DNA of 64,000 nucleotides. It comes from Minisyncoccia bacterium (GTDB lineage Bacteria; Patescibacteriota; Minisyncoccia; UBA6257; GWB1-50-10). The notes under the pieces are model-generated. The model searched no databases, had not been told where the DNA came from, and saw only the letters and a program-made list of their open reading frames with translations. Position 1 is the first letter of the stretch; each line of letters opens with the position of its first letter. This document shows positions 1 to 16,744 of this stretch, piece by piece. Position numbers and translations under genes: made by a program. The stretch is taken from contig JBEKVQ010000003.1 of NCBI GenBank assembly GCA_049997815.1, forward strand, positions 85 to 64,084, read 5' to 3'.

Positions 1-40
1 TGGAAAAAAATTTACAAAAACGCCGGGCTATGCGCCCGGC

Positions 41-195
41 TTGGAAGTTTCGCTTTCAGTCGGGGCTTATCCCCTTTCGTCGTATTTATCGTATATCATA
101 CCCCCATTTTTGCCAGAAGAGCAAAAATTGACCAATACCACCAAAAGGTGGTATTTTCTGGTTAGCCATCAAACAACTGAATCATTTACCGATAT
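41..195 (+). repeat. copy 1 of a duplicated ~150-nt leader / structured 5'-UTR element (copy 2 at 1921-2047)
   Basis: About 90% identity to 1921-2047. Contains the hairpin TTTTGCC-AGAAG-GGCAAAA, a TTGACC -35-like hexamer, and a second hairpin ACCACC-AAAA-GGTGGT. Confidence 0.7.
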
Positions 196-221
196 CCGAC
201 TATTTCAGAGGAGAAATCACT

Positions 222-719: not shown

Positions 720-937
720 ACAACCGAATTCCATGCCGCATTTGAACCCTGACCACGCAAAAGTGATCAGGGCTCTTTTTATTTATAGTGAGTTTATCCA
801 ACTATTCCCCCGCCCTCATCCCAAAAACCGAAGGTCATGAGCAGCGCCGAATGATTGACGCATACCTCTATTCGGTGGTATTTTGCTTTCAGCTCAACAA
901 GAACCAAATATCACCCAAACAACCCAAGGAGGCACCG

Positions 938-1747: not shown

Positions 1748-1785
1748 TTCTTGCAGGACGGAAGGTTATAACGAACATGAAGTAA

Positions 1786-1816
1786 AAGCCGCTGTATGTA
1801 ATAGGCGGCTTTTTTG
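1786..1816 (+). terminator. rho-independent terminator of the repeat-protein gene
   Basis: agccgc...gcggct stem followed by a TTTTTT run directly downstream of the stop at 1747. Confidence 0.6.
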
Positions 1817-1920
1817 TTTTCCCTTTCCCATTCCAAAACAAAAGCCCACCAGTTCTATATATAGAACTGGTGGTTTCTAGGCCAAAAACCAAAGGCGCTA
1901 TAGTTAACTATAGCGCCTGG

Positions 1921-2047
1921 AAGTTTCGCTTTCAGTCGGGGCTCATCCCCTTTCGTCGTATTTATCGTATATCATACCCCCATTTTTGCCAGAAGGGCAA
2001 AAATTGACCGATACCGCCTTTCGGTGGTATTTTTTGGTTAGTCATCA
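1921..2047 (+). repeat. copy 2 of the duplicated leader element, upstream of ORF 2101..2304
   Basis: Same element as 41-195. The second hairpin is ACCGCC-TTTC-GGTGGT, i.e. a changed loop and a G-U wobble that preserve pairing. Confidence 0.7.
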
Positions 2048-2100
2048 AACAACTGAGTTGCTCACTTTTTGATCTGGAACATCCCAGAGAGGAGACAAGC

Positions 2101-2304
2101 ATGCTCGACATTATTAACTTCCTAATCGCTCTCTTCGGTTTCCTATGGATCGTGTCATTTATCCTCGTGGCACTGTCCGGCATAGGTCTCTTGGGGCTAG
2201 CGTTATTCTCTTACATCACGGACGCGGATTTCAGGAAAATCATGAAACAAGTACCCGTCAATCTCCGTGACTTCTGCTTCCCCATTTCTCTTGGCCGAAC
2301 CTAA
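2101..2304 (+). CDS. small hydrophobic membrane protein
   Basis: 67-aa ORF that is mostly transmembrane (LIALFGFLWIVSFILVALSGIGLLGLALF); GAGAGGAG RBS; follows leader copy 2. Confidence 0.3.
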   Translation: MLDIINFLIALFGFLWIVSFILVALSGIGLLGLALFSYITDADFRKIMKQVPVNLRDFCFPISLGRT

Positions 2305-2915
2305 ATCAGTCTCAGTCTCATTCTCTCAAAGTCCCGTTCAAGGCAAAACCTTGCGGGCTTTTTTATTTCCCCGCCCCAAACCCCCACCGGTTCTAATATT
2401 AGGACCAGTGATTTCCCGAAAAAATTCAATTCCCCCATCTCCCGGAGCGTAATATTGACAAATAGCACATTTTTGTGCTATTTTGGTTTCATTAACATCG
2501 GTTAATTCCCACCACTGGGATTCAGTGGAAACCAGCACATTGAAAGGGTTAAAAATGCTGACGACGGCATTATATATCGCGGCTGCCATCCTTGTATTTG
2601 CGGCATTATTCCAAATCCGCCTAGTCCGCGCAAGAAAAGATTTCGCGAGGTACTTCACGTCTCTTCAAACCAGCACGGAAGAAGTGTTCGCGAAACTGCT
2701 TCGACTCCGTAAGCTGGCGGAAGACAGCGACCCGCGCTTCAGTCGGCCGGGAAAACCCGCAAGCAAGCCCTACCCCGGTTGGCTTGATATCGCCGAGACG
2801 AACTGGCACGAATATCACTGCGCCAAACGCGCAGCTGCCATTTGTTCGTTTTTGTGAATCGTGATAATTGATTCGTTTCAATCGATTTCACAATCTAGGG
2901 CTCAAGGAGGCCACT

Positions 2916-3245
2916 ATGAAAAAAGATAGATTCGAAATCATATGGTTGGTGTTCATTGTCCTCGTCTACCCGATCAGTTGCGTAAGATGGTATAAACAAT
3001 GCAAGGAAGAGAGGAACGCACGTGAAAAGGACTTCATTTTTTACGGCATCCTGGGGACAGTGGGAATCTCAGCGCTTATAGCTTCCTTCTTCCTTATACA
3101 TCTCATGGGGCGGAATTCCATGTTCATAGAATTTGCCGGAGGGATCCTTTATCTCTGGGGCCTCAAATTATTCGTCGATTTGGCCCTCAAGCTAAGAAAG
3201 AACAGCTCGGCTCATGGAAAGACCGAAACCACTATTTCTTCCTAA
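2916..3245 (+). CDS. membrane protein, hypothetical
   Basis: Track ORF 2868..3245. The internal ATG at 2916 is preceded by AAGGAGG. Two or three predicted TM helices. Confidence 0.3.
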   Translation: MKKDRFEIIWLVFIVLVYPISCVRWYKQCKEERNAREKDFIFYGILGTVGISALIASFFLIHLMGRNSMFIEFAGGILYLWGLKLFVDLALKLRKNSSAHGKTETTISS

Positions 3246-3260
3246 GGAGGTACTAAGAGT

Positions 3261-3476
3261 ATGAATATCCCAAGAGACAAAACATATCCGGCTGACAGCG
3301 TCCAATGCAACGAGTGTGGTGGGAATGGATGCAGAAAGTGCGACAACAAGGGTTGGCTGACCCCCCAAGACAACCCAGGGGGACGACGATGCGCGAACGA
3401 ATCTTGCAACAAACCGATTCCTCCGTCGCATGTTGCCGTCTATTGTTCTGACGAATGCGCACTGGCTGACGCTTAG
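3261..3476 (+). CDS. small cysteine-rich (zinc-ribbon-like) protein
   Basis: 71 aa with CNECGGNGCRKC ... CANESC ... YCSDEC; TAAGGAGG RBS; followed by a hairpin terminator at 3501-3534. Confidence 0.4.
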   Translation: MNIPRDKTYPADSVQCNECGGNGCRKCDNKGWLTPQDNPGGRRCANESCNKPIPPSHVAVYCSDECALADA

Positions 3477-3667
3477 GCAGCATAAATCTACAGCGGTTAA
3501 AAGAGACCACCGCTTAAACAAAAGGTCTCTTTTTATTTCCCCCGCCCGAATTCCAAAAAACCTTGCCTACCGAAGCTTCAGCGAAGGCGGGACCCCGGGG
3601 AGCAAAAAACAAAAACGGGAGATGAATTCTCCCGTTTTTGCTTCAAGATTGGGTTTCTAAATCAAAT

Positions 3668-4462
3668 CTAGAATCCGAACAGATGGCTGAAGAAGTTGCC
3701 GATGGAACCCAAGAAACCCATGCGAGGCTTCGGGGCATTATTCTCTCCGGAAGCAGCCGACGCCGGCGCGCTCCCCTGGTCAATGACGGACGAAGCGGTT
3801 ATGGACGTACCGTTCACCGTGCCCTGCACCACCAGATTATCTCCCACCGCCACGTTGGAAATTGTTGTGCTCGTGCCCATCTTTATGATTGAGGCGTTCG
3901 TGGCGTCAACCGTATAAACGACGTTGCTCTTGTTCGTTACGGTCAGAGTATTACCGTTTACGGCGCTCACGCTGCCACCAATCACGGGCTGGCCATTTCC
4001 CTGGATAATCGGATTTTTGGGAATATTCTCCGGCTTGCCGGATTTATCTCCCTGCATCATTCTTCCGATGCCATCGCGAATCATGGTCGCCGTTACGTTC
4101 GTGCCGTTCACCGTACCCTGCACCATAATGGCGTCGCCCACTACGATACTTGATACGGAAGAGGCCGCGCCGTTTTTCGTAACCTTGGCGTTTCCGGCAT
4201 CAACCGTGTAGGTCGTTGCCGCTCCCCCCTTCGGTCCGGTCTTTCCGGCAACCGAGAGAGTCGCGCCGTTAATGGCGGAAACCGTCCCGAAAACGCCGGG
4301 GGCTCTGCGCATTTGCCCTCCCATCCTGCCCATCCAAGCACCTTGCGGAGCCGGATTCTGGGTGGTTTGAGCGAAGGCCGGAGCGACTAGGGCGAAACTT
4401 GCAACAAGGCCCGCTATGACTATTAACGAAGAATATTTCTTCATAAATTGAAGTTTAATCAA
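3668..4462 (-). CDS. secreted protein with two DUF5666-like repeats
   Basis: N-terminal signal peptide (MKKYSSLIVIAGLVASFALVAPAFA). Two ~90-aa repeats, VSAINGATLSVAGKTG...VGDAIMVQGTVNGTNVTA and VSAVNGNTLTVTNKSN...VGDNLVVQGTVNGTSITA, resemble the DUF5666 pattern. Confidence 0.5.
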   Translation of the reverse strand: MIKLQFMKKYSSLIVIAGLVASFALVAPAFAQTTQNPAPQGAWMGRMGGQMRRAPGVFGTVSAINGATLSVAGKTGPKGGAATTYTVDAGNAKVTKNGAASSVSSIVVGDAIMVQGTVNGTNVTATMIRDGIGRMMQGDKSGKPENIPKNPIIQGNGQPVIGGSVSAVNGNTLTVTNKSNVVYTVDATNASIIKMGTSTTISNVAVGDNLVVQGTVNGTSITASSVIDQGSAPASAASGENNAPKPRMGFLGSIGNFFSHLFGF

Positions 4463-4600
4463 TGTATTTACGGATCAGCTCGACCAGGCCAATCTGTATA
4501 TACTACGGATTGGCCGACAATTTTGTTGCATCCCCTACTGGTAAATAACTCCCCCGCTCCCATTCCCAAAAACCACCAGTCCTACATATAGGACTGGTGG

Positions 4601-4966
4601 TTATATATCTTCTTGACCCTCCGTTTCTCCCGATTTTTTGGATTCTTTCTGGAGAAATTCAAGAAATTGCTCGAGCCGTTTCATGGCCATCTCGAGATCT
4701 GCGCCCGCTTCGGCTTCTTGCCCAACCGAAATCCATTCTTCCAATATTTCCGGGCTAAAGCTCTCGTAGTCGTACGAGTACAAAACTCCAATGCCCTCAT
4801 CGATTTTTTGCTTAAGCGCTTCTGTCGCTTCGGGCGACAATTCTTTCGGGTCTGCTTCAAGCCCAAAAGACAATCTCCTCTTTCGTGTTATTTCCGCGGC
4901 CTCTTCGGGGGTCGTGATTTTTTTCTCCGGCTGTTCGGGCGTTTCGCCCATTTGTTCGATAGGCAT
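4601..4966 (-). CDS. acidic hypothetical protein
   Basis: 121-aa Glu-rich ORF at the 3' end of the long minus-strand gene train; a perfect palindromic terminator at 4572-4601 abuts its stop. Confidence 0.4.
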   Translation of the reverse strand: MPIEQMGETPEQPEKKITTPEEAAEITRKRRLSFGLEADPKELSPEATEALKQKIDEGIGVLYSYDYESFSPEILEEWISVGQEAEAGADLEMAMKRLEQFLEFLQKESKKSGETEGQEDI

Positions 4967-4976
4967 AGTATTTAAA

Positions 4977-6740
4977 TTACACTACTTCGGCGTTATAGCA
5001 AGATTCGCAATATACTATTTCCTTCCTCTCCGGAGCGTAGGATGTCTCAAATTCGTTGGGGCAGTGGCCATCTCCATGCTGATGTTTGACCGTGTTCGCA
5101 TAAACTCCGTTCTCGTTTTTTGCGCCGGAACACTGGCATTTACGGTGCCAAAGCTTCCGGGGATTCCGAAGCTTGAATCTGTCCGTCCGGCGGCACGGGA
5201 AACATTTCGCCGGAACCGGAATGCCCAGTTTCCTGTATAACCCGATCTCGAGCGGCATAATCCGGAACGCGGTCGTGCACCCCGGATGATCGGCTTTTTC
5301 CTTGTCGGAAAGTTGGGACGCGCATCGAATCACTTCGCCCTCCATTGAATCGGCGGTATCCGCGATTTTTTGAGGGAGAGCTTCCTGCTCCATGGTGGGG
5401 ATATAGTTCCGGGAATCTTCCCCATCATGCCATTTATAGCCCCGGCGCAACGCCTCGTCCTTCGAGAGCGGGAAATAATCCTGCGCCATGGATTCGTTGT
5501 AGGCGAAGGGCGAAACGCTCGGCGGAAAATACTCGCCCCACTCGCCTGTTTTCCGCATATGCGCGATTATTCGTTCTTTCGTCTTTGTATATTCTTCTTT
5601 CGAATATTGTTTGTTCAAAATGCAATATTCCTTGGATTTAAGACCAAAACAACCGAAACAATTACGCACGCCGAAACACATATCGCAATAACAAGAATCG
5701 GTTATGGTGTTGAAACAGCTTCGCGCAACGATAGTTCGATTCGGGGCTTCAACGCCCTGAATCTCGTAGGACAACTCGCCAATAATGACCTCCGTACAAT
5801 CCCGGCAATCCCCCATTTGTTGCCAGGCGTCCTGCATATAAGCGGTATCTTTGTTATCGCGGCAGTTAAAAGCAACTTTCGCCCGCTGACTGTTTTCCAA
5901 GTAGTCCCCCGAGGAATTTTGAATCTGAACCCCGTGGTAATGCTTCACCGGAATACTCAATCTCAACTTCATAAGCTCTGACTGCATATCCTTGATGGCA
6001 TCACGAGACCATGGAAACTCTTTCAGCTTTCTTTCATAATCCTGCTTTTCGAGTTGCGTATTGAACCAGCAATATTGTTTTTTGCGCAAACCCACGCAAC
6101 CGAAGCAATTTATGCACCCCCGGCAATCATTGGAAAAATAGACCTCGACGCAATCGGAACAATCGTAAATCCAAACGCATTTCGAACATTTTTTCAGATT
6201 GATACATTCATAACAAAGCTCGCATTGCTCAATCATGTAGCAATCCGAACATAAGAAGCATTTAAATTGATTCCAGCTTCCGTACATGCACTTTTCATTC
6301 GAACCGCTCGTCACCAACATGTAGCAATCCTTATTGTCCTGGGATTGATTCGTGTATTCCGAGTTAACGCTCCTTGAGTTTACTAAGGCGAGATGCGGCA
6401 CCAAACGGCGAAGTTCTTCATATTGGTCGAAAAACGGCCGGTTAAAATCGAGGTCTCGCCCATATTCCATCGCATCCCAAGCATCCGACCTCCAATAATC
6501 CTGTTTGTAAACCGGGAAGGGCGCATCGGGACGGTAGATCGAGATGATGCTCTCTTGCGTGGCATCGCATTTCCGCTTGCAAAAGTTATACTCGTTCCTG
6601 TCCAAAAGCCGCCGAATATAACGGCAATCTGGACACAGGGTTGGCGCCGGGACGCCGATTTTTTCGTAAAACCCAAAATCGTCGGGCTCAATGACGAAGT
6701 TTTGCTTGCAATTACGGCAATTTTTTGTTTCCGAATTCAT
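4977..6740 (-). CDS. cysteine-rich multi-zinc-ribbon protein, paralog 1 of 5 (unknown family)
   Basis: 587 aa. N-terminus MNSETKNCRNCKQNFVIEPDDFGFYEKIGVPAPTLCPDCRYIRRL. Two core CxxCxxCFGCxGLxxKxYC...NKQYSKEEY motifs, then GEWGEYFP. A second FRIMPLEIGLYRKLGIPVPAKCFPCRR module, and the C-terminus CPNEFETSYAPERKEIVYCESCYNAEVV. Overlaps paralog 2 by 4 nt. Confidence 0.8.
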   Translation of the reverse strand: MNSETKNCRNCKQNFVIEPDDFGFYEKIGVPAPTLCPDCRYIRRLLDRNEYNFCKRKCDATQESIISIYRPDAPFPVYKQDYWRSDAWDAMEYGRDLDFNRPFFDQYEELRRLVPHLALVNSRSVNSEYTNQSQDNKDCYMLVTSGSNEKCMYGSWNQFKCFLCSDCYMIEQCELCYECINLKKCSKCVWIYDCSDCVEVYFSNDCRGCINCFGCVGLRKKQYCWFNTQLEKQDYERKLKEFPWSRDAIKDMQSELMKLRLSIPVKHYHGVQIQNSSGDYLENSQRAKVAFNCRDNKDTAYMQDAWQQMGDCRDCTEVIIGELSYEIQGVEAPNRTIVARSCFNTITDSCYCDMCFGVRNCFGCFGLKSKEYCILNKQYSKEEYTKTKERIIAHMRKTGEWGEYFPPSVSPFAYNESMAQDYFPLSKDEALRRGYKWHDGEDSRNYIPTMEQEALPQKIADTADSMEGEVIRCASQLSDKEKADHPGCTTAFRIMPLEIGLYRKLGIPVPAKCFPCRRTDRFKLRNPRKLWHRKCQCSGAKNENGVYANTVKHQHGDGHCPNEFETSYAPERKEIVYCESCYNAEVV

Positions 6741-8440
6741 ACTATCTCTGAATTATAACAGCTCTCGCAGTAGATGGGCCTCCGTTCTTTTTCGGTGAAA
6801 AATGTTTCAAATTCGTTCGGGCACCGCTTGTCGTGATTATGGCCGGATTTCGCACAATCACACCGCCGGTGCATAAAGTCGAAACCTCCCCGCATTTCCT
6901 CACGCTCACTTTGTCTGCAAAAGAAGCATCTGTCCGGTATCGGAACGTGCAGTTGTTTATACAAGGCAAGTTCGCCTGGAAGAACGTTATAATTGCGTCC
7001 GCAGGATAAGCAGGCCAAAATCTCGTTTATGAACGTATCCGGCACGTCGTCTATCGAATCGGGCACTTTTTCTTGCGACAGCGTTTGTTTGCCTCTTGTC
7101 TGTTGTATATTATCAAGCCAATTATACCCGCGGAAGAGAGCATCTTCGCGGCCAATTGGCCATTGGTCGAATGCGCGAGTTTCATTGAAACCGAACGGAG
7201 AAGAACTTATCGGAAAGAATTCGCCCCATTCTCCTCTACGCTTCATATCGGCGATTATCTTTTCGCGCAAATTGAAGTACTCTCCTTTTGGATATTTTTT
7301 GTTCAATATGGAGTACTCACCCTTTTTTAAGCCAACGCAACCTAGAACATTCGAGCAAGAATGACAGTCAGAACAATAAGAAGCGTTGTTGTTCTTCCAT
7401 GAATAAACCGTGGCCATGCTCAGGTACGATTGGTCCGGAGTAATGGATTCATAAGCGAGTTCCGTTTCTCCGGCTCCGGCACAGTCGTACGATTGTTTAA
7501 ACGTGATGCCGTTATGCACGTACTTCGAATCCTCGGAAAGAGATGCAAAATTGGCACTGTGAGTATTCTTCGATCTGATCATATCCGTCCCTGAACAATT
7601 GGAGCAATTGCGTAATTCGGCATACTTGCGGGGAATATCGCGAAGAAACATTTTAAATTCTTCTTTAGCCCGACTGTAGCCAGACCTGGCACGAAGATTA
7701 TATGAATCGAGGGTTTTCTTGAATTCCTCCTGGGTAAGTTGCTGATTCTTGAAATAAAAACGTTTATTCCTAAGCCCAGCGCACATAAAACAATCGGAAC
7801 AGCCGCGGCAGTCATAGCAAAAATTGCAATCCACGCAAGAAGATACCCAATAAACGCTTTTACATCGGGAATCCTGTTCGATCATCAGTCCATCGTAGAT
7901 ATATTCGCATTCCGAGTGAACACCGAGACAATCGCATAAATATTTCCCTGCGGCTAGGTAAGAGGAGCAGAAAACGTTTTCCAATCTCCACGCGACGAAT
8001 GTCATTGCGCAATTTTTCGAAAACGCAACATCCTGAGTGTACAAACAATTTACGCTCCCGATATCGTTATCATTAACGATGCCAAGTGCTGGCGTGGTCT
8101 GAAAAAGCGAAATGAATTGATCGATAAATGACCTAGAAGGATCATATTCTGCGCCACATTCATATGGATCCCAATTATCACCCCAAAAACATTTGGGACA
8201 ATAGGCCCTAATCTTAATCTTATGGCTGGGTGAGTAGATGGAGATGAATTTTTTCTTGCAGAGATCGCATTCGCGAGGATACAGATTGTAATCATTCCGC
8301 CAGGAAAGTCTTCTCATGCGCCGGCAGAGCGGACATAATTTCGGTGCCGGGACGCCGATTTTTTCGTAAAATCCGAAGTCGTCGGGTTCGATGACGAAAT
8401 CCTGTTTACAATTTTGGCAATTCCTGGTTTCGGAGTTCAT
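6737..8440 (-). CDS. cysteine-rich multi-zinc-ribbon protein, paralog 2
   Basis: 567 aa. Same N-terminal module (MNSETRNCQNCKQDFVIEPDDFGFYEKIGVPAPKLCPLCRR), the CxxCxxC...GLRNK core motifs, GEWGEFFP, a C-terminal YNVLPGELALYKQLHVPIPDRCFFCR module, and ...CPNEFETFFTEKERRPIYCESCYNSEIV. Confidence 0.8.
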   Translation of the reverse strand: MNSETRNCQNCKQDFVIEPDDFGFYEKIGVPAPKLCPLCRRMRRLSWRNDYNLYPRECDLCKKKFISIYSPSHKIKIRAYCPKCFWGDNWDPYECGAEYDPSRSFIDQFISLFQTTPALGIVNDNDIGSVNCLYTQDVAFSKNCAMTFVAWRLENVFCSSYLAAGKYLCDCLGVHSECEYIYDGLMIEQDSRCKSVYWVSSCVDCNFCYDCRGCSDCFMCAGLRNKRFYFKNQQLTQEEFKKTLDSYNLRARSGYSRAKEEFKMFLRDIPRKYAELRNCSNCSGTDMIRSKNTHSANFASLSEDSKYVHNGITFKQSYDCAGAGETELAYESITPDQSYLSMATVYSWKNNNASYCSDCHSCSNVLGCVGLKKGEYSILNKKYPKGEYFNLREKIIADMKRRGEWGEFFPISSSPFGFNETRAFDQWPIGREDALFRGYNWLDNIQQTRGKQTLSQEKVPDSIDDVPDTFINEILACLSCGRNYNVLPGELALYKQLHVPIPDRCFFCRQSEREEMRGGFDFMHRRCDCAKSGHNHDKRCPNEFETFFTEKERRPIYCESCYNSEIV

Positions 8441-8441
8441 A

Positions 8442-10145
8442 CTAGAATATTTCCTTTAGATAGCATTCCTTGCAATAAATAACAGACGCGTCCTCCTTTC
8501 GATAATTCGTCCGGAATAATTTGCCGCACCTATCGCAATTCCGCTCTATGAGCGTCATTTGCCAGGCCCAGCGCTTAACCTTTTCTCCTATGCGACAGAA
8601 AGGACAGCGTCTCGGAAGGGGAAAATTGTACTGTCTTAGAAACCCTAGTTCTTGCGGGGTGATCTTATATCCCCTTGGGCATGTCGTGCACCTAATAGAT
8701 TCATTCAGAATATCGTCCTTCGCGTCTCGGATATGATCCGGCAAATCAGTAGCCATTTTGGTTGTCACGTGCTCGCTCGGTGAGATATCAACCCAAGCAA
8801 GACCTTCCTTTAGCGCCTCCCCTTTCTCAAGCGGATAGAACATATACGCAAAAGTGTCGTTGTAATCATGCGGAGAAAGTTGCATCGGAAAAAATTCTCC
8901 ATATCTATATTCGCGCCCGGCTGCATCCTTATACGGCATCTCGTTCATCTGGGTGATAACCTTCTCCCGCATTTTATGGAATTCTTCCTTATCGTATTTT
9001 TTGTTGAGGATGTAATAACTCTTACTCCTTAAACCCGAACATCCCAGAAGGTAGGAACTTCCCATGCAGCTCTTGGAGTATTCAATATTGTGGCTATCGT
9101 GGATATCCTGGCTGAATTTCACGTCGGCAACTTTGTTGCCTACGGTAATCCCTTCGTAGATGCGCTCCGCGCCTTCTCCCCAATCGACGTAATCGTAGCT
9201 GTCTTTCACACTCGGGGTCTTGATAAGCATCAGATATTTGGAGTCCTCACAATAGCCGCATTCATAGCATTCTTTGCAGTTCTTGGAATAAAACACGTAA
9301 TTGCCGGTGCAATTTTCTACAAAATCCTGATAGTGGGGGTATGGAATGGAGTTTTTCCAAACTTCTTCCGATTTTGTTTTCATCTCCTGATAGGTTTTAT
9401 ATGAACCGAGATCAATGTTCTTGACGTTTCGTTCATATTCATCTTTCGTTAGCTGTTTATTGAAAAATACGTGCTTTTTGTTGTGTAAATTTGCCGACCC
9501 AAAACAACTTTGGGCGTTTCTTGAATCCTTGATGAAAAAACAATCGAGCGAATTATGAACATTGCCTCGAGAACCGTGTACTCGGTGATTCCGCCAGCTG
9601 TTCATGATGTCGTAGCATTGCTCGGACTCAAACGCAACGCTGCAATCGAGCATGGATTTGTTTTTAGTTATGTAAAACCCATACTGGCAATCCTCGTCGT
9701 AGTCGGAATAAAAAATGAGGTAGCAATTCTTGGAATGGTCGCAGTGATTAGTGTAGGGAGAAAGCTCCGTAACACTCTTCGTAACGGCAATCCCCCGAAT
9801 GGGGATCTTGTGAAGATGCTCGTTAAGCTGTTCAAAGAATGGCTTTCCGAAATCATAGTCGCGGGCATAATCCTCCGGGTCCCATTTATCACTCCACCAG
9901 CATTCGGTGCAATAGACCGTATACGGCGCATCCGGCCGGTACATGGAGATTTTTTCCTTGCCACACAGATCGCACTTGCGCTTATACAAGCGAAAACCCT
10001 TGAACCACGCCAGGCGCCTCTGAAGCCGGCACCGAGGGCACCATGTCGGCAGTGGAACGTCTATCTTCTTATAAAAATTAAAATCTTCCGGCTCTATGAC
10101 AAAATTTTGACGGCAATTTTGGCAATTCCTAGTTTCGGAGTTCAT
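8442..10145 (-). CDS. cysteine-rich multi-zinc-ribbon protein, paralog 3
   Basis: 567 aa. MNSETRNCQNCRQNFVIEPEDFNFYKKIDVPLPTWCPRCRLQRRL ... YGEFFP ... YKITPQELGFLRQYNFPLPRRCPFCR ... VIYCKECYLKEIF. Separated from paralog 2 by 1 nt. Confidence 0.8.
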   Translation of the reverse strand: MNSETRNCQNCRQNFVIEPEDFNFYKKIDVPLPTWCPRCRLQRRLAWFKGFRLYKRKCDLCGKEKISMYRPDAPYTVYCTECWWSDKWDPEDYARDYDFGKPFFEQLNEHLHKIPIRGIAVTKSVTELSPYTNHCDHSKNCYLIFYSDYDEDCQYGFYITKNKSMLDCSVAFESEQCYDIMNSWRNHRVHGSRGNVHNSLDCFFIKDSRNAQSCFGSANLHNKKHVFFNKQLTKDEYERNVKNIDLGSYKTYQEMKTKSEEVWKNSIPYPHYQDFVENCTGNYVFYSKNCKECYECGYCEDSKYLMLIKTPSVKDSYDYVDWGEGAERIYEGITVGNKVADVKFSQDIHDSHNIEYSKSCMGSSYLLGCSGLRSKSYYILNKKYDKEEFHKMREKVITQMNEMPYKDAAGREYRYGEFFPMQLSPHDYNDTFAYMFYPLEKGEALKEGLAWVDISPSEHVTTKMATDLPDHIRDAKDDILNESIRCTTCPRGYKITPQELGFLRQYNFPLPRRCPFCRIGEKVKRWAWQMTLIERNCDRCGKLFRTNYRKEDASVIYCKECYLKEIF

Positions 10146-10147
10146 TT

Positions 10148-10747
10148 TTATGATTTATTGAGTGTTATCAAGCCGTTCTCGCGGCTGGCCATGAAACCGA
10201 CGTATTTTTCCAAATCGGGCACCTTAACGCCCACATCTACAACCGGTTTAGAGAAGAATATCTTGGTCTTGAATCCAAGCGGAGTTATCTCTCCGGCAAA
10301 ACCTACCCCATCCAGATCGCCCGATAATATGAGCTTATTATGGCCTTTTACGGCAGAAAAGAGCGCTTTGGTGAGGATGGATTCGATATTCTTCACGAGA
10401 ACAACCCTGTCTTTAATGTCGGGAAGCGTTCGGAACGCTTTGAGGCAAAGTTCGGAATCCCCACTCTTCACTATTACGGTGCAAAAATCCGAGGCCTTTT
10501 CGATATCTTCCTCCCGCTCCAAATAGAAAACATCTTTCTCTTTTCCGGAACCGGAAATCTGCGTCATGAATTCTTCTCTTGCCATCGGGTAAGCCGTGAA
10601 GAAGAGGAGTTTTTTGCCGGCCAGAAACATCTGAACCGCGACGGTAACGGTGAAGAACGACGCCCCGGTCTTATGGGCGCCGTGGATCAAGAGCGGCAAG
10701 TCCGCCTCCGAAAAATGAAATTCCTTTTTATCCAAAAATATCTCCAT
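10148..10747 (-). CDS. hypothetical protein nested in the paralog array
   Basis: 199-aa ORF overlapping the GNAT gene by 1 nt, with a 2-nt gap to paralog 3. No confident motif (HGAHKTGAS is not a canonical P-loop). Confidence 0.45.
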   Translation of the reverse strand: MEIFLDKKEFHFSEADLPLLIHGAHKTGASFFTVTVAVQMFLAGKKLLFFTAYPMAREEFMTQISGSGKEKDVFYLEREEDIEKASDFCTVIVKSGDSELCLKAFRTLPDIKDRVVLVKNIESILTKALFSAVKGHNKLILSGDLDGVGFAGEITPLGFKTKIFFSKPVVDVGVKVPDLEKYVGFMASRENGLITLNKS

Positions 10748-11235
10748 TACAGTTCTTTTCTAAACACCCGCATCGGCTTCGAGCGGTCTTCCCCGGCATA
10801 AACCGTTCCCACATTCTTATATCCCATTTTCTCATAAAAACCGTACGAAGTATCGCGGTACCGCTCCGCGCTTCTTGCAAGAACCTCCGCATAACCTTCT
10901 TTTCTCGCTTCGTTTTCCAGAAAATCGACGAGCTTCTTCCCTATTCCCTTCCCTCGATATGCACCATCCACGTACAAAATTTTGAACTTTCCGGGCCGAC
11001 TTGTTTTCGCGAATGGCAGAACCTGAGGCAACGGGTCGCAAAGGCCGACAATCCCCACTGGCATGCCGGAATATCTCGCCACCCAATAGTGGGTGTTGAA
11101 CTCTATCTTTCTGGTAATTTCATCTTGAATGCGCTTTACGTATTTTTCAACCTCGGGATTGTCCGTCCACTGGGCCAGTATCTTCCTTATCTCTCCCAAA
11201 TCGCCTAGCTTCGGTTTGTCTATTATAATTTCCAT
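10747..11235 (-). CDS. GNAT family N-acetyltransferase
   Basis: 162 aa; acetyl-CoA-binding motif A (ILYVDGAYRGKGIGKKLVDFLENEARKEGY); typical GNAT length. Confidence 0.75.
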   Translation of the reverse strand: MEIIIDKPKLGDLGEIRKILAQWTDNPEVEKYVKRIQDEITRKIEFNTHYWVARYSGMPVGIVGLCDPLPQVLPFAKTSRPGKFKILYVDGAYRGKGIGKKLVDFLENEARKEGYAEVLARSAERYRDTSYGFYEKMGYKNVGTVYAGEDRSKPMRVFRKEL

Positions 11236-11238
11236 AAG

Positions 11239-12981
11239 TTAAACTACTTCGGCGTTATAGCAACTTTCGCAGTAAACGGATTCGTACTCCTTGGGGTCAA
11301 AGACCGAAACGATGGCCACGCCGCACTTTTTGCAATGACGAGCGTAGGTATGGATGAGGAAATCGTATATTTCTCTGAACCTCGCCAGGCGCTGGAGCGG
11401 GTGTATTCGGGGCAAAGGAAACGAATTCCTTCTATAGAAAGCGAGTTCGTAGGGAACGATTCGGAAGTAGCGGTTGTTCACATCGTCAAATACGGCTTTC
11501 TTCAGCATGGAGTCATCAACGTCCTTGATATCTTCCGGCAGATCGGCAGCGTTGATGATTTCCCCCTCCGGTTTCTCGGAGACCGCCGCCACGTCCCGGA
11601 CGTCGTAGCCGTACCGTTCGGCTTTTTCGTAATCGCAAAAATTGTTGTAGGCGGTCATAAAAGACAGTTTGTATGGGATAGGCATCAATTTAGGCGGAAA
11701 GAATTCTCCGTACTCACCATTTTTAAGCATTGCCATCTTCAAATCATCAACTGTCCGCCAATAATCTCCCTCCGAATACTGCTTGTTTAGAACGCAGAAT
11801 GATTTGTTCTGAAGTCCAATACAGCCGAAACAATCGTGGCAATTGCGGCAGAGGTCGCAATACTCCACGTCGCGGGCTTCACCCATCTGGACCGAGAATT
11901 TAACGTTATAATTGCCCGTAGTGCTGATGCTCGTGAATTCGTAGCAAAGCTCGCCGCCCCCGCCGCCGAAACCGTCATAGCTGTCCTTGTAATAACCCAG
12001 GCCGAACGAGTAGTTGACGTTCTCGGCATCAACAAGATAATTTCCGGCGTGGCAATTTTTGGAGTTCAAAATGAAGTCGCCGGAGCAATTCACCGATTTG
12101 AAGTTGTGGTCGGGCTTGCGAATAGCTTCTTTCTGCAATTCATCGAACTGGGCGAGGTATTTAAGGAATTCCAAGTAATTTCCCAAGTTTATCTTTTTCA
12201 GTTCGGCCTCGTATTCCTCTTTGGGAAGCGGCCGGTTCATGAAGTAGTACTTCTTGTGCCTTAAATTAGAAGACATAAAACAATGGTCGCAATCCCGACA
12301 ATCAAAGAGAAAGAAGGAATTAAGGCAATTGCGGCAATCCTCGCAGACGGCGCATTTATAGCAATCGTAGACCAGCTGGCTGTGATAACAGTCGGTCGCA
12401 TTCCAGGCGCTTTCGCAATCAACGCAGTCCTTGCTTGAATCGCAACAGTCAAAATAATAGAGATTCTCGCCGCTTAAGGTGCTGAAAGTAAAGTAGCAAT
12501 CCCTTAGATTAATGGAGGTGTTAGTGTAATCGCTCCCGATGTTCGTGGAATCAGTGATGAGATTCGGGCGCGGCACCGCTTTTTGCAATTTTCCGAATTG
12601 AGCGAAGAAAGAGTCGCCGGTCGGCGCGAATCCGTAATCGAGCGGGTTCCACTTGCCCGAAAACCAGAACTTGTGCTCAAAAATCTTGTAGGGCGTGTCG
12701 GGCGGGTAAGCGGCCACAATCGGCTTTTGGGAATGGGCCGAGGAAATCTTGAAAAGATTGTAGTTATTGAGATAAGCGCCCCGGCGCCGAAGACGCTCGG
12801 CGGGCGAAAGTGTCGGCAATGGCACGCCAATTCTCTTATAGAAACCAATGTCTTCCGGCTGGACATAAAACTTTTCGCCGGAAAAACGGCAAGTCCGCCA
12901 CTGGCCGCCGTTCTCGTTCAGTTTCAATTCTCGGTAGTAATCTTCCAGGACCTTATCGAAATTCGGCGTCTTTGAGTTCAT
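11239..12981 (-). CDS. cysteine-rich protein, paralog 4 (divergent; terminal zinc-ribbon cysteines lost)
   Basis: 580 aa. The N-terminal module is present but the Cys ligands are replaced (FYVQPEDIGFYKRIGVPLPTLSPAERLRRR); the C-terminal module is FRIVPYELAFYRRNSFPLPRIHPLQR. It keeps the core CRDCDHCF / CRNCHDCFGCIGLQNK motifs, YGEFFP, and the C-terminus YCESCYNAEVV. Confidence 0.75.
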   Translation of the reverse strand: MNSKTPNFDKVLEDYYRELKLNENGGQWRTCRFSGEKFYVQPEDIGFYKRIGVPLPTLSPAERLRRRGAYLNNYNLFKISSAHSQKPIVAAYPPDTPYKIFEHKFWFSGKWNPLDYGFAPTGDSFFAQFGKLQKAVPRPNLITDSTNIGSDYTNTSINLRDCYFTFSTLSGENLYYFDCCDSSKDCVDCESAWNATDCYHSQLVYDCYKCAVCEDCRNCLNSFFLFDCRDCDHCFMSSNLRHKKYYFMNRPLPKEEYEAELKKINLGNYLEFLKYLAQFDELQKEAIRKPDHNFKSVNCSGDFILNSKNCHAGNYLVDAENVNYSFGLGYYKDSYDGFGGGGGELCYEFTSISTTGNYNVKFSVQMGEARDVEYCDLCRNCHDCFGCIGLQNKSFCVLNKQYSEGDYWRTVDDLKMAMLKNGEYGEFFPPKLMPIPYKLSFMTAYNNFCDYEKAERYGYDVRDVAAVSEKPEGEIINAADLPEDIKDVDDSMLKKAVFDDVNNRYFRIVPYELAFYRRNSFPLPRIHPLQRLARFREIYDFLIHTYARHCKKCGVAIVSVFDPKEYESVYCESCYNAEVV

Positions 12982-14765
12982 ACTACCTCTTTGTTATAAC
13001 ACTGCTCGCAGTAGACGATATCTTTGCGGTCGGGCGAATAGCTGGACTCGAATTCATTCGGGCACTCCCCCGTTCCATGGGAATGCTTCGCCGTGTTTTG
13101 ATAGACGCCGTTTTCGGATTTTCGGCCGGCGCATTGGCATTTTCTTTTAAAAAGCTTGATGGGATTCCTTTGGGCGACCCTCATGGCATAGCGGCAATTC
13201 GGACAAAGACGCGGGAGCGGAAGGCGCATTGCCTGATAAAACTGGAGCTCCTGCGGCGTGAGGCGGAATGCCGTCGTGCAATGGTCGGCACACGTTCCGG
13301 CATGCGCGCAAGAAACGACCTTATTCTCGAAATCGGCGCTTGATGCCTCTTCCGTGATATCGTCGGGAAGCTTGTCGCAAGATATGTCCACTCCGTAGTT
13401 TCTCTTGCCGGCGCTCCTCCAGACGAATCCCTTGCTGATGGCATCCACCTCGCTTAACGGAAAGAAATCCTCCGCGACCGTATCGTTGTACGGATAAAGA
13501 GACAGCTCCGGCGGGAAAAATTCTCCGTACTTATACACCCGTTTCTTATCGTCGATATACGGCATCTCGTCCATGTGTTTAATGATCTTAGGCACCAAAT
13601 CCTCGTACTCTTCTTTGGAATATTGTTTGTTCAAAATGCAGTATTGTTTGTGATGCATTCCCACGCAGCCGAACATATGCGACGAGTTGTTCACGACGAA
13701 AGAGTACTGCACGTCGCTGCAATTCTGGAACGCCTCGAAGCAGAACTTTATCCGGGAAATGTGGTTTCCGCTCGCCGTGGCTTCATAAACGAGCTCGCTG
13801 TTAAGACCGTAGCGGAAATGGTCGTAGGAATCGCGGGCGCCCTTCGAATACAGACCCTGGCAGTACTTCAGATTTTCGCCGTCATTCACGTAGTAGCTCT
13901 CGCGGACGTTCTTGGAATTCGAGATGTATTCCCCGGTGCAGCGTTCGTTCTTTTGTCCGCGCACGTAGCGGACGGGGAATTTCAGCCAAAAATCGCGCAC
14001 CTTCTTCTTTATATCTTCAAGTGAAGAGTGCGAATTCAATCTGAATTTATTCAACTCCTCTTCATACTCCTCTTTCGAGTATGGCTTGTTAAAAATGTGG
14101 TATTTTTTGTTCCTTAGCCCGACACACCCAAAACAATTTTCACAGCCGATGCAGTCGCGGCAGAAATAGATATCGTATGAGCTCTCACAGTAAGACGAGA
14201 AGAAAGCCCGGAAGCATTTCTTGTTGAAAATGGATTCATAGGATACTTCGCTGTCCGTGATATACGAGCTGTCGAACAGCTGGCGGCTCTGGGTGGAATT
14301 GCCGGAGTACGCGCTGTCCTCGATAAAAGTGCAGCCGAAGATAAGATATGAATCCTTTATGTCACTTGCGTTGTTGCAGTAATCGCTGTTTACAAGATTA
14401 ACGACGAATCTGCTTGGAATGAGAGCGTTCTTTAATAATCTTTTGAATTGAAGGAAGAATGATTCCTCCCAATCATAATCCATCCCCGGAGCGTTCTGGT
14501 CCCAATTGTCCGAGAACCAGTAATCCTTATCAACGGCCTTGGCGCCGGAAAAACCATGCGTCCCCGAAAGAATCTCCTTGCCGCTTACGGCATCTTTGAT
14601 GTGATAGAGGTTTCGCTCGTTCCACCAGATCATCCTCCGCTGCAATCGGCAATCCGGGCACCAGGTGGGCGGCGGAACGTCTATCTTCTTGTAGAAATCG
14701 AAATCTTCCGCTTCGATTGTGAAGTTTTGCTTGCAGTTCTGACAGATTTTGGTTTCGGGGTTCAT
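12978..14765 (-). CDS. cysteine-rich multi-zinc-ribbon protein, paralog 5
   Basis: 595 aa. MNPETKICQNCKQNFTIEAEDFDFYKKIDVPPPTWCPDCRLQRR ... CRDCIGCENCFGCVGLRNKKY ... YGEFFP ... FRLTPQELQFYQAMRLPLPRLCPNCR ... CPNEFESSYSPDRKDIVYCEQCYNKEVV. Its C-terminal ~75 aa are nearly identical to paralog 1. Confidence 0.8.
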   Translation of the reverse strand: MNPETKICQNCKQNFTIEAEDFDFYKKIDVPPPTWCPDCRLQRRMIWWNERNLYHIKDAVSGKEILSGTHGFSGAKAVDKDYWFSDNWDQNAPGMDYDWEESFFLQFKRLLKNALIPSRFVVNLVNSDYCNNASDIKDSYLIFGCTFIEDSAYSGNSTQSRQLFDSSYITDSEVSYESIFNKKCFRAFFSSYCESSYDIYFCRDCIGCENCFGCVGLRNKKYHIFNKPYSKEEYEEELNKFRLNSHSSLEDIKKKVRDFWLKFPVRYVRGQKNERCTGEYISNSKNVRESYYVNDGENLKYCQGLYSKGARDSYDHFRYGLNSELVYEATASGNHISRIKFCFEAFQNCSDVQYSFVVNNSSHMFGCVGMHHKQYCILNKQYSKEEYEDLVPKIIKHMDEMPYIDDKKRVYKYGEFFPPELSLYPYNDTVAEDFFPLSEVDAISKGFVWRSAGKRNYGVDISCDKLPDDITEEASSADFENKVVSCAHAGTCADHCTTAFRLTPQELQFYQAMRLPLPRLCPNCRYAMRVAQRNPIKLFKRKCQCAGRKSENGVYQNTAKHSHGTGECPNEFESSYSPDRKDIVYCEQCYNKEVV

Positions 14766-14768
14766 AAA

Positions 14769-15410
14769 TTACAGCAATTTCTCTTGTTCCTTTCTCTCGC
14801 TTTCGCTCATTGCCGCAGGATTGCTTTTTAATTTCTCCCGCCTTTCGGCCAGGAATTCATCATACTTGCCGGGCAGAAGCTTTAATTTGTGGAAATCCTT
14901 CTCCAACTCCTTTAAAACCCCCGTGGAGCGGAGCGCGGCAGCGGGATGATATAAGGGAATGACCAGCCGCTCGCCCCACCAGAAGACCCGGCCGTGGTCG
15001 TTGGAAATCTTCGCATTCGGCAGGATGTAGTTCATTGAGTACCGGCCCAAGGGAACGATGATCTTCGGGTTCAATATTTCAATTTCTTCCGCTAGATACG
15101 GCCGATAGGCATCGAGCTCTTCCGGTAGGGGGTCGCGATTTCCCGGCGGTCGGCGCTTCACGATATTCGAGATATAAACGCTCTCGCGCTTCCAGCCGAC
15201 ATCATTAAGCAGTCTGTCCAAAAGTTTCCCGGCGCGCCCGACGAATGGCCATTGCAATTTATCTTCAAAAAAACCGGGGGCTTCCCCGACGAACATCACC
15301 TCGCTCTCCGCACTGCCCTCTCCGAAGACGAAATTGGACTCCTGAAGGGGAAGCGTCCTGTCGGCCGACATTCTTTCCTTCAATTTCAAAAGCGTATCGG
15401 ACTTGGACAT
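14769..15410 (-). CDS. uracil-DNA glycosylase, family 4 (UdgA-like)
   Basis: The track ORF extends to 15659, but the likely start is MSKSD at 15410. Family-4 motif FVGEAPG(FFED); C-terminal region matches UDG-4 (YISNIVKRRPPGNRDP...LGRYS...HPAA). Confidence 0.7.
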   Translation of the reverse strand: MSKSDTLLKLKERMSADRTLPLQESNFVFGEGSAESEVMFVGEAPGFFEDKLQWPFVGRAGKLLDRLLNDVGWKRESVYISNIVKRRPPGNRDPLPEELDAYRPYLAEEIEILNPKIIVPLGRYSMNYILPNAKISNDHGRVFWWGERLVIPLYHPAAALRSTGVLKELEKDFHKLKLLPGKYDEFLAERREKLKSNPAAMSESERKEQEKLL

Positions 15411-15412
15411 TT

Positions 15413-16744
15413 TTATGGGTTCAAAAGTCCTTTTATATAACTTAGGACATCCTCTCTCGGAACGGCCTCTTGCACCCGTTCCCTCATGTTCTTTATCTGA
15501 ACTATTCTTTTCTTCCTTTCTTCTTCTCCGATTATCAATACCACCGGATAGCTCTGTTTTACGGCGTAACTCAACTGGCCCTTCAGGTTCTTTTCTTGGC
15601 CGAGATAGATCTCCGTCGAAACGCCATCCCTCCGGAGATCGGACGCCAGCTTTTCGCAAACCTCCTCCGATTCCCTGTCGAAATTAAGGAGCAAAACCTG
15701 CGCCGGCGACTTGAAATCCGGCAGTAATCCGAATTTTTTGAGCGCCACGAAGAGCCGATCCACGCCCAGCGACGCCCCGGTCACGGGAATGCTCGCGGAA
15801 CTGAAACGGGATATCAAATCGTCGTAACGACCGCCGGCGAAAACGCTGCCCAACTCCGGATAATCCGTAAGCACCGCCTCAAAAACGGGTCCGGTGTAGT
15901 ATCCCAATCCGCGCGCGACCGATAGGTCTACCATCCAATTCTTATCGGGAACGCCGAGCGCTTTTACGTTATTCGCAAGCTCCCCCAGTTCCGAGATGCC
16001 CTCTTCGGCCGTCTTGGAAGCCTCAAATAAGGCAGATGCTTCTTTCAGGATTTTTTTGCTATCACCCTTCAGTTCAACGAATTTTTTAAGCGAGCCGACA
16101 GCATTCTTATCCAATCTCGTTTCTTTGACGAGTTCCGATTCAACGTCTTTCCATTTATTCTTGTCCAGCTTGTCCAGAATCCTTAGAACAGTTTCGGTCT
16201 TGCCCTTCGGGAAATCCGCATAACCGGAAAGCACATTCAATATTTTTCTATTGTTGACCTTAATGACGAATTTCTTGAAGCCCAGAGCAGACAGGGTTTC
16301 ATAAATCAAGGAAACGATTTCTGCATCCGCCATCGTTCCCGGCGCGCCTACGATATCGGCGTCAATTTGAAGAAATTCACGGAAGCGACCGGCCTGAGCG
16401 CGTTCTCCCCGCCAAGCATTACCGGCCTGATATCGTTTCCAGGGTTTTGGCAATTCATTTTGATAGGCCGCTATGACGCGCGCCAACGGGACTGTCAAAT
16501 CAAAACGCAGGGCAGTTTTTTCATCCTGACCGCTTAAATTCAACTTGAAAATTTGTTTTTTGAAGTTCGGGTCACCGCCCGTAAGGATCTCTTCCCGCTC
16601 CACGCCGGGCGTTTCGAGCGGCGCAAAACCGAACCGCTTGAAAACGGTCTTTATCGTCTCCACCATCCATTCCCGGGCCGCCGCGTCAGACGGCAGATAA
16701 TCCCTGAAACCGGAGGCCAAATTGGGCTCAATATAGTTCTTCAT
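15413..16744 (-). CDS. hisS: histidine--tRNA ligase
   Basis: 443 aa with GFRDYLP, the class II motifs, GGRYDDL and a C-terminal anticodon-binding domain. Confidence 0.85.
   Translation of the reverse strand: MKNYIEPNLASGFRDYLPSDAAAREWMVETIKTVFKRFGFAPLETPGVEREEILTGGDPNFKKQIFKLNLSGQDEKTALRFDLTVPLARVIAAYQNELPKPWKRYQAGNAWRGERAQAGRFREFLQIDADIVGAPGTMADAEIVSLIYETLSALGFKKFVIKVNNRKILNVLSGYADFPKGKTETVLRILDKLDKNKWKDVESELVKETRLDKNAVGSLKKFVELKGDSKKILKEASALFEASKTAEEGISELGELANNVKALGVPDKNWMVDLSVARGLGYYTGPVFEAVLTDYPELGSVFAGGRYDDLISRFSSASIPVTGASLGVDRLFVALKKFGLLPDFKSPAQVLLLNFDRESEEVCEKLASDLRRDGVSTEIYLGQEKNLKGQLSYAVKQSYPVVLIIGEEERKKRIVQIKNMRERVQEAVPREDVLSYIKGLLNP

Follow-up and report, generated by a model that had tools for sequence, protein, structure and literature searches.

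Family F, a heavily duplicated zinc-finger and β-solenoid protein family of Patescibacteria with linkage to soluble VirD4-like ATPases

We analysed a 64,000-nucleotide (nt) stretch of DNA, hereafter the window, from a Minisyncoccia bacterium of the Patescibacteriota (GenBank assembly GCA_049997815.1, contig JBEKVQ010000003.1). Five complete and intact open reading frames (ORFs) of 567-595 amino acids (aa), all on the minus strand, lie within positions 4977-14765 and encode cysteine-rich paralogs of a family that we call F. F is an ancient, heavily duplicated and undescribed core family of Parcubacteria-type Patescibacteria and not a hypervariable system. In other genomes, soluble ATPases of the VirD4 type are its recurrent neighbors.

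Results

Five paralogs and two embedded genes

The array genes were read from a mechanical ORF listing and lettered A to E. A preliminary description of this DNA took the five genes to be consecutive, having overlooked a GNAT N-acetyltransferase gene and the gene of a 199-aa protein (p199) that interrupt the array between B and C; the latter turned out to be the most informative clue at the locus. Apart from the GNAT gene, the NCBI annotation of ABSF47_01540-01575 lists hypothetical proteins of a Minisyncoccia metagenome-assembled genome (MAG). The array and its embedded genes are as follows, with the zinc fingers numbered 1 to 4 from the N-terminus.

12978-14765, minus strand: paralog A, 595 aa (ABSF47_01575); four of four ligands in fingers 1, 3 and 4, none in finger 2
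11239-12981, minus strand: paralog B, 580 aa (ABSF47_01570); 23-aa N-terminal extension; ligands gone from fingers 1, 2 and 3, finger 4 intact
10747-11235, minus strand: GNAT N-acetyltransferase gene, 162 aa, 3 nt downstream of B; Pfam E 3e-14
10148-10747, minus strand: p199, 199 aa (ABSF47_01560); stand-alone P-loop core of the FtsK-HerA superfamily
8442-10145, minus strand: paralog C, 567 aa (ABSF47_01555); four of four zinc fingers intact
6737-8440, minus strand: paralog D, 567 aa (ABSF47_01550); four of four zinc fingers intact
4977-6740, minus strand: paralog E, 587 aa (ABSF47_01545); chosen for the structure model; finger 2 degenerate, likewise in E orthologs

From DNA with 100% identity to the window, the gene caller of the Joint Genome Institute derives products of C and D shortened to 500 and 349 aa. 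Both ORFs are full length, so the shortening is a gene-calling artefact and not a frameshift, and database clusters of family F consequently contain truncated entries.

Zinc fingers flank two cysteine-ladder solenoids

Paralogs A to E align end to end at 29-42% pairwise identity and share one architecture, in which all the motifs quoted in the preliminary description are present. The proteins are soluble and near-neutral in charge, with 29-42 Cys each and no signal peptide or transmembrane segment in any of the five (maximum 19-residue hydropathy ≤1.1), in agreement with the dozens of cysteines and missing signal peptides noted earlier. From the N-terminus, a type 1 finger and a CxxC-x17-CxxC finger are followed by a Cys-ladder β-solenoid, a helical hairpin, a second β-solenoid, a linker with the GEWGEFFP and YNE motifs, and the same two fingers again. 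This order reflects an inverted internal duplication. When the first 260 residues of each protein were compared with the remainder by BLAST, the N-terminal ~85 residues matched the C-terminal ~85 (E 1e-8 to 1e-14) and residues ~115-240 matched ~265-395 (E 1e-4 to 1e-11), which bears out the earlier observation that the N-terminal module is repeated near the C-terminus and that the core motif occurs twice.

E was modelled with AlphaFold2 from an alignment of 44 sequences, with a predicted template modelling score of 0.83 and a mean predicted local distance difference test score (pLDDT) of 76. The fingers and linkers are confident, as is a helical and linker region that includes GEWGEFFP...YNE; a helical linker follows the first finger pair, and a helical hairpin sits between the solenoids. 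Residues 125-225 form a long coil with little regular structure by DSSP (pLDDT 55-64), and a second such coil spans residues 265-365. The parts of E map to the window as follows.

6471-6740, minus strand: residues 1-90, finger 1 (zf_Tbcl type, C8/C11/C36/C39) and finger 2 (CxxC-x17-CxxC type)
6057-6368, minus strand: residues 125-228, β-solenoid 1; coils of ~12 residues, with the cap motif C..C..CFGC.GLR.K.Y..N at its end
5607-5948, minus strand: residues 265-378, β-solenoid 2, a duplicate of solenoid 1; cap motif CFGC.GL..K.YCILNKQY
5466-5546, minus strand: residues 399-425, the family-wide conserved GEWGE[FY]FP...SPF.YNE..A.D.FP
4980-5330, minus strand: residues 471-587, finger 3 (zf_Tbcl type) and finger 4 (CxxC-x17-CxxC type)

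Within the conserved linker, G402, P406, Y414 and N415 of E are each at least 96% conserved. Across 347 family members, the Cys positions of solenoid 1 keep a strict period-3 register and hydrophobic residues recur every ~12 residues, a pattern compatible with a narrow solenoid whose Cys/Ser ladder points inward. The solenoid cysteines themselves are poorly conserved, and most are replaced in A and C. Insect antifreeze proteins and curli CsgA likewise have coils of ~12 residues with Cys at fixed inward positions; the F solenoids differ from them in showing an identity of only 3-9%, in lacking a secretion signal and in their family-specific CFGC.GL..K.Y..N cap and zinc-finger flanks. F was placed neither among secreted ice-binding β-solenoids, which are defined by a secretion signal and a flat Thr-rich face, nor among left-handed β-helix hexapeptide transferases, defined by a hexapeptide repeat profile and an acyltransferase active site.

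Searches for a covering family returned none, and the preliminary view of F as an unnamed family stands. Pfam, NCBIfam, PHROGs and PADLOC scans of the array proteins gave only sub-threshold treble-clef matches, aside from a match of phrog_15341 (function unknown) to solenoid 1 (E 2e-5). Profile searches against the PDB reached at best E 0.03 for the whole family, to a LIM domain, and yielded nothing significant for finger 1 alone; LIM, bL32 and C2H2 matches, all at E 0.03 or worse, were set aside as noise. Foldseek comparison of the model with the PDB returned nothing at E<=1.

Two types of zinc finger

The fingers fall into two types. Type 1 (fingers 1 and 3) has the form C..C-x24-CP.CR, and its CxxC...CxxC pattern is 94-97% conserved. 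Type 2 (fingers 2 and 4) is CxxC-x17-CxxC, as in C58-x2-C61-x17-C79-x2-C82 of paralog C; the finger 4 spacing is the same in B and C, and in A, D and E a Cys/His-rich segment is inserted into this finger. Finger 3 stands out as strongly basic: its net charge averages +5.6 over the family. Complete ligand sets are present in 327, 165, 277 and 340 of the 347 members for fingers 1, 2, 3 and 4, respectively.

These modules share CxxC spacing and flanking motifs with zf_Tbcl (type 1) and with zf_Tbcl_2/TIGR04272 (type 2), at sub-threshold scores of 14-21 bits compared with 24-27, and they make up only the terminal 15-20% of the protein. Against zf_Tbcl_2 (PF23477) and TIGR04272, whose CxxC-x17-CxxC spacing F has, B scores 21.3 and 17.7 bits and C 14.7 and 13.5, below the 27 bits of Pfam and the 36 of TIGR. 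Against zf_Tbcl (PF13451; 24 bits), A and D score 18.3 and 20.3, and only 5 of 44 members reach E<0.01. The type 1 module is a diverged relative of zf_Tbcl and does not score as a member. The terminal modules, described earlier as zinc-ribbon-like, are thus zinc-finger-like with treble-clef affinities. Proteins with CxxC-x17-CxxC bind zinc, as measured by inductively coupled plasma mass spectrometry for small Methanosarcina proteins (PMC12704099).

One paralog (the fourth in the earlier numbering) had been recognized as lacking the Cys ligands of both ribbon modules; this is B, and the modules are the type 1 fingers 1 and 3. The ligands of fingers 1-3 are lost in B, in its 47%-identical ortholog (locus L047) and in one further protein, so that B represents an old, rare but conserved subtype and not decay.

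F is widespread in Patescibacteria

A word-indexed search with E produced more than 6,699 matches, and all those with names are hypothetical proteins. The top 120 are full-length and 59-72% identical, and come from Staskawicz-, Kaiser-, Nomura- and other Parcubacteria-type MAGs. In an exhaustive profile search over 1.84 billion cluster representatives, 2,243 clusters (50% identity) passed E<=1e-30 and 5,287 passed E<=1e-3; of the best 150, nearly all are 530-610 aa long. F is restricted to Patescibacteria, and the named records come from the Parcubacteria/Paceibacteria (Minisyncoccia) group. In a scan of one genome per GTDB species, at least 559 F stretches were detected. We examined 80 F-seeded species-representative loci (79 fetched loci and the window), and two or more F copies are present in 55, with up to nine in tandem, so that tandem arrays are indeed common in genomes of the Candidate Phyla Radiation (CPR), a point raised for checking in the preliminary description. 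The single partial F match among 2.9 million viral contigs indicates that the family is not phage-borne.

Literature searches on treble clefs and Patescibacteria, PF13451, cysteine-rich or β-helix proteins, and zinc fingers and paralogs returned no account of F or of any linkage between it and orphan coupling-protein homologs. The function given here to the family and its gene module is read from anatomy and gene context only.

Paralogs are older than genera and their cores are conserved among orthologs

Since third-codon positions are saturated between paralogs (31-46% identical, at background), divergence was assessed by comparing region-wise identity between orthologs and paralogs. Among 201 members, the median best identity is 57% across genomes and 44% within a locus. 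Orthologs in other genera are ~60-75% identical, compared with 29-42% between array paralogs, and single-linkage clustering at 50% identity gives no clean orthogroups. These sequence comparisons point to paralogs that diverged anciently, before the genera themselves.

The preliminary description emphasized strongly diverged cores. Between paralogs this is correct: E and the other four window paralogs are 65% identical over the first 50 residues and 29-33% over the solenoids. It does not hold among orthologs. Compared with 39 orthologs, E is 73% identical over the first 50 residues, 69-73% over the termini and 70-72% over the solenoid cores, which thus equal the termini, and is loose only in the helical hairpin (37%) and the linker before finger 3 (43%). 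Cores that are paralog-specific yet conserved bear the signature of old functional specialization and not of diversifying selection. The C-terminal 75 aa of A and E, described earlier as nearly identical, are 67% identical in protein, 62% in nucleotide sequence and 41% at third-codon positions; this low third-position identity indicates purifying selection on the protein and not recent gene conversion. Nor are the paralogs pseudogenizing duplicates, as the genes are intact and under purifying selection.

Soluble VirD4-like ATPases flank F genes

Neighbors were identified by clustering the non-family ORFs of the 80 F-seeded loci. One strongly recurrent same-strand neighbor, adjacent to or interleaved with F genes in 27 of the 80, is a soluble VirD4/TrwB/HerA-like ATPase. 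The flanking ATPases match T4SS-DNA_transf, TrwB_AAD_bind, DUF87 and TraG-D_C in Pfam, TraD/VirD4-like/CedD in NCBIfam and, by sequence, TrwB (1e9r). They occur in a short form (ATPs, ~480-520 aa) and a long form (ATPl, ~600-780 aa). In the reciprocal analysis, a metagenome scan seeded with the short ATPase, 48 of 80 loci contain F genes; among the 29 loci of at least 15 kb, 25 do. Binomial probabilities for the linkage counts under generous random-placement nulls are 2.5e-12 and 5e-10. The typical layout of these loci is ATPl, one to six F copies, ATPs and further F genes. Examples of the module of F genes between ATPl and ATPs are L094 128-9375 (set L081-L160) and L042 2854-9979 (set L006-L080).

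The linkage is kept in two synteny types. In one, the order is dnaK-ATPl-F-ATPs-dnaJ. In the other, ATPs, F genes and ATPl are preceded by SecF, by a sigma70-r4/HARE helix-turn-helix protein and by u453 and u174, two proteins that lack annotation and have transmembrane segments at the N-terminus. The F gene directly after ATPl forms a positional orthogroup, its best cross-locus match being in the same position in 14 of 23 cases. In addition, all six of the long ATPases tested carry a C-terminal zf_Tbcl_2 domain above the Pfam gathering score (42-54 bits, E 1e-11 to 1e-14), which is the finger type of F fingers 2 and 4.

Neither ATPs nor ATPl has a membrane anchor (median maximum 19-residue hydropathy about 1.1), and no VirB4 or relaxase gene is among the recurrent neighbors of these loci; the N-terminal transmembrane anchor and virB4 or relaxase linkage of type IV coupling proteins (T4CPs) are thus both missing. 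A recent survey counted 5,713 VirD4-type homologs in 2,918 CPR genomes, about two each, of which only 148 lie near virB4, and left their role open, with exaptation as a possibility; this 2025 preprint does not mention F neighbors (bioRxiv 10.1101/2025.01.22.634366).

p199 is a predicted pseudo-ATPase within the array

The p199 family comprises 22 clusters and is found in Patescibacteria only. The structure model of p199 (pLDDT 96) folds as a RecA-like P-loop core of the HerA/VirB4/FtsK/TrwB type, that is, with the FtsK-HerA fold. Its Walker A motif reads G-x4-G-A-S; in 22 of 22 relatives, Ala, Gly or Ser stands where the Lys would be. At the Walker B position, VKN replaces hhhhDE. The catalytic Walker A (GxxxxGK[ST]) and Walker B of FtsK-HerA ATPases are therefore both missing, and p199 is predicted from its sequence to be a pseudo-ATPase, a catalytically dead stand-alone FtsK-HerA core. 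Structure matches include the EccC entries 4n1a and 4nh0, and p199 resembles the degenerate ATPase domains of EccC. Relatives of p199 lie within or beside F arrays or ATPs in L075, L008, L067 and L125. Through p199, the superfamily of the ATPases found beside F genes in other genomes is also represented in the window array.

The GNAT gene, for which the 80 F-seeded loci hold no homolog, is probably incidental. The 105-aa ORF that precedes the B ortholog in L047 is unrelated. The link to B consists of one fusion protein, P0249 (731 aa), in which a GNAT domain is N-terminally joined to a B-like F protein with degenerate type 1 fingers, a single case that a gene-calling or assembly fusion could explain.

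Gene train and genome surroundings

The array belongs to a minus-strand gene train that runs from hisS to a gene for an acidic 121-aa protein.

15413-16744, minus strand: hisS (histidyl-tRNA synthetase), upstream in the train; Pfam tRNA-synt_His E 4e-53
About 14769-15416, minus strand: UDG-family gene, upstream in the train; housekeeping context
4601-4966, minus strand: acidic 121-aa gene (isoelectric point 4.3), closing the train; no family match
4571-4602, no strand assigned: palindromic hairpin with a perfect 14-bp stem at the 3' end of the 121-aa gene; consensus match only

Genes of the train are tightly packed: neighbors either overlap by 1-4 nt or lie 1-3 nt apart, except for the 10 nt before the 121-aa gene. 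Both the coupled packing of at most 4 nt and the flanking genes named in the preliminary description, hisS and udg upstream and an acidic gene downstream, were recovered, with the 10-nt spacing as an addition. The 121-aa gene is probably incidental to the array: no homolog lies beside family genes in the 80 F-seeded loci, and the ATPase-seeded loci were not searched for it. The hairpin could mark where transcription of the train ends, perhaps as a bidirectional terminator; in a promoter and terminator scan, nothing exceeded shuffled controls.

Further F genes, at least two and probably three, lie to the left of the window in the same genome, 5-8 kb from position 1. Locus L161 is from the window's own genome, and its position 9780 is window position 1.

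L161 1465-3252, minus strand: F-family gene, one of two complete L161 copies (595 and 583 aa)
L161 3249-5000, minus strand: F-family gene, the second complete L161 copy
L162 1-1460, minus strand: F-family gene running off the end, a partial third copy left of the window

Genes for an RNase T-like protein and a UvrD helicase part these copies from the window array. The genome thus has at least 7-8 F copies within about 30 kb. Two other assemblies cover window positions 1-3834, outside the array, and 8-10 kb leftward with further F genes; they are 100% identical there, so the neighboring array shows no strain-level variation. The window genes are those of a core chromosome and include class II ribonucleotide reductase, ftsZ, ftsA, cysS, dnaB, the CCA-adding enzyme gene and tRNAs.

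Several other features of the window were recorded. A 142-bp direct repeat (92% identical; 39-180 and 1915-2056) is intergenic, flanking ORFs 222-719 and 788-1747, and includes a promoter-like stretch, TTGACC-N17-TATTTT, and a hairpin; it may be a duplicated regulatory region. A borderline Rfam match to a group I intron (RF00028, 20929-21136, plus strand; 50.8 bits, gathering score 50) lies between two small protein ORFs, outside tRNA or rRNA genes. Besides hisS, a second histidyl-tRNA-synthetase-like gene is present at 40136-41440 on the minus strand (tRNA-synt_His E 4e-24) and may be HisZ-like or a divergent paralog. At 28449-29432 on the minus strand, a gene combining a bacterial PH domain with a Schlafen/AlbA_2 domain adjoins an MgsA-type AAA+ ATPase gene (27273-28442); it is possibly a nucleic-acid-sensing or defence-type gene amid a housekeeping region.

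Discussion

Compared with the defining features of known families, F shares only the spacing of its fingers and p199 only its fold; in every other comparison run, they fell short of membership. We tentatively read F proteins as partners of FtsK-HerA/VirD4-class hexameric translocases, at somewhat less than even probability, and our best guess, as yet unproven, is that they act as specificity-bearing adaptors or cargo. The four zinc fingers, of which one is strongly basic, would serve as shared docking or putative nucleic-acid-binding modules; the long VirD4-like ATPase carries a fused finger of the same type. The two rigid solenoids, which differ between paralogs and are conserved among orthologs, would give each paralog specificity for a different macromolecular ligand. 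The array would then supply fixed-specificity adaptors or loaders, perhaps for the DNA or RNA that orphan, soluble T4CP-like ATPases handle. Within this scheme, p199 may be an inactive subunit or decoy of the ATPase ring, and the active ATPases, absent from the window, would act from elsewhere in the genome. A more ambitious proposal, which we consider doubtful, is that F, the two soluble VirD4-like ATPases and p199 form one new Patescibacteria-wide cytoplasmic machine, in which an exapted motor of the conjugation type receives distinct substrates, nucleic acid or protein, from 5-10 or more fixed-specificity adaptors.

The relation of F to known coupling-protein systems is one of partial likeness. 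The flanking ATPases resemble VirD4, TrwB and TraD in the matches to TrwB_AAD_bind, T4SS-DNA_transf, TraG-D_C and 1e9r given above, and T4CPs use dedicated substrate-recognition partners, for example Legionella DotL with DotM/DotN/IcmSW. DotN, one such partner, is a zinc protein. The CPR ATPases differ in having no transmembrane anchor, in not lying beside virB4 or relaxase genes and in being paired as long and short forms. F is unrelated in sequence or fold to known coupling-protein adaptors or relaxases, and p199 is only a bare, inactive P-loop core.

Several observations weigh against a partnership with translocases. The binomial probabilities given above for the linkage overstate independence, since the loci are phylogenetically related. 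Two thirds of the F-seeded loci have no ATPase within 10 kb or less. Searches with hidden Markov models and tblastn found no active VirD4-like ATPase in the window or in the 10 kb leftward. For the window array, the case is made by p199 and by other genomes, and the core orthogroup next to ATPl includes none of its five paralogs. Kinship of p199 with the active VirD4-like ATPases is indicated by modelled fold only, as hhalign aligns the P-loops with a non-significant probability of 1%. The solenoid parts of the E model are only moderately confident, and nucleic-acid binding, zinc binding and ATPase interaction of F are predictions only. Finally, a role in proteostasis could instead be suggested by the dnaK/dnaJ neighborhood seen in one clade.

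F proteins might alternatively be cargo, exported without a Sec signal by VirD4/EccC-like ATPases to form extracellular Cys-ladder fibers or adhesins of the episymbiont on its host. Tandem F arrays beside FtsK/VirD4-class ATPases recall type VII secretion, where substrate genes also form tandem arrays beside EccC/EssC, and p199 resembles the degenerate EccC ATPase domains that bind substrate signal peptides (4n1a, 4nh0). The placement of u453, u174 and SecF directly upstream of ATPs in one synteny type, and the lack of relaxases in CPR type IV secretion clusters, would also agree with export. However, both ATPases are soluble, and the four well-conserved zinc fingers point to a reducing cytoplasm. 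The ~60-75% cross-genus ortholog identity and the conserved solenoid surfaces are unlike those of host-facing effectors or adhesins, the C-terminus is a modelled folded zinc finger and not a disordered secretion signal, and the finger type that ATPl shares with F suggests a common intracellular ligand. Unlike type VII loci, these have no WXG/LXG-like substrates or membrane components, and F proteins are ~580-aa zinc-finger/solenoid proteins conserved across genera. On balance, we consider export unlikely.

An equally unlikely alternative is that F works independently of the ATPases, the linkage being inherited synteny and the proteins being zinc/thiol redox or metal buffers, or holdase co-chaperones like Hsp33 or DnaJ. 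This would suit the 29-42 Cys per protein, the large clade in which F genes lie between dnaK and dnaJ, the genes for CutA1 (divalent-ion tolerance) that recur beside arrays in 22 loci and the Nramp metal transporter gene 2 kb upstream in the window; most F arrays, the window's included, have no active ATPase nearby. The poor conservation of the solenoid cysteines makes them look structural and not metal-storing. Inherited synteny also accounts poorly for linkage in two unrelated synteny types, for a finger domain common to ATPase and F, and for a dead ATPase core inside the array, which is hard to attribute to chance.

An anti-phage defence system built on a HerA-like ATPase, as in HerA-Sir2 or HerA-DUF4297, is very improbable. 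The weak PADLOC match of p199 to Hhe (E 0.006) would favor it, but none of A-E matches any PADLOC defence model, and effector domains such as a nuclease or Sir2 are missing. Neither the accessory domains of HerA nor the catalytic lysine is found in p199, which also has no nuclease or Sir2 partner of the kind seen in HerA-NurA and HerA-Sir2/DUF4297, and F, being near-universal, vertically conserved, multi-copy and part of the core genome, is unlike patchy defence islands. Least probable of all is the polymorphic or variable system that the preliminary description proposed, with conserved termini and hypervariable cores, be it a means of surface or antigenic variation, a toxin/immunity set or a programmable targeting array: the tandem arrangement and the better-conserved termini between paralogs would suit it, but it is already largely refuted by closer relatives in other genera, cores as conserved as termini among orthologs, paralogs that predate the genera, third-codon identity at background with no sign of recombination or conversion, the lack of a hypervariable region and of toxin, immunity, nuclease or PADLOC matches for A-E, the near-absence of F from viral contigs, the housekeeping setting of the locus and the identity of the neighboring array across two other assemblies.

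A tiny Patescibacteria genome spends at least eight genes, roughly 14 kb, on one unnamed family. Each paralog is under strong purifying selection, and this investment in copies implies that the family has an important function specific to the lineage. The linkage gives two unknowns, F and the orphan soluble VirD4-like ATPases, a testable partner each. If the link is real, it would represent a new use of the FtsK-HerA motor class together with a new architecture, zinc fingers capping Cys-ladder β-solenoids. If the more ambitious proposal of a single machine were true, that machine would be a core part of macromolecule uptake or processing in these ultra-small episymbionts and would give the orphan CPR type IV coupling proteins a role.

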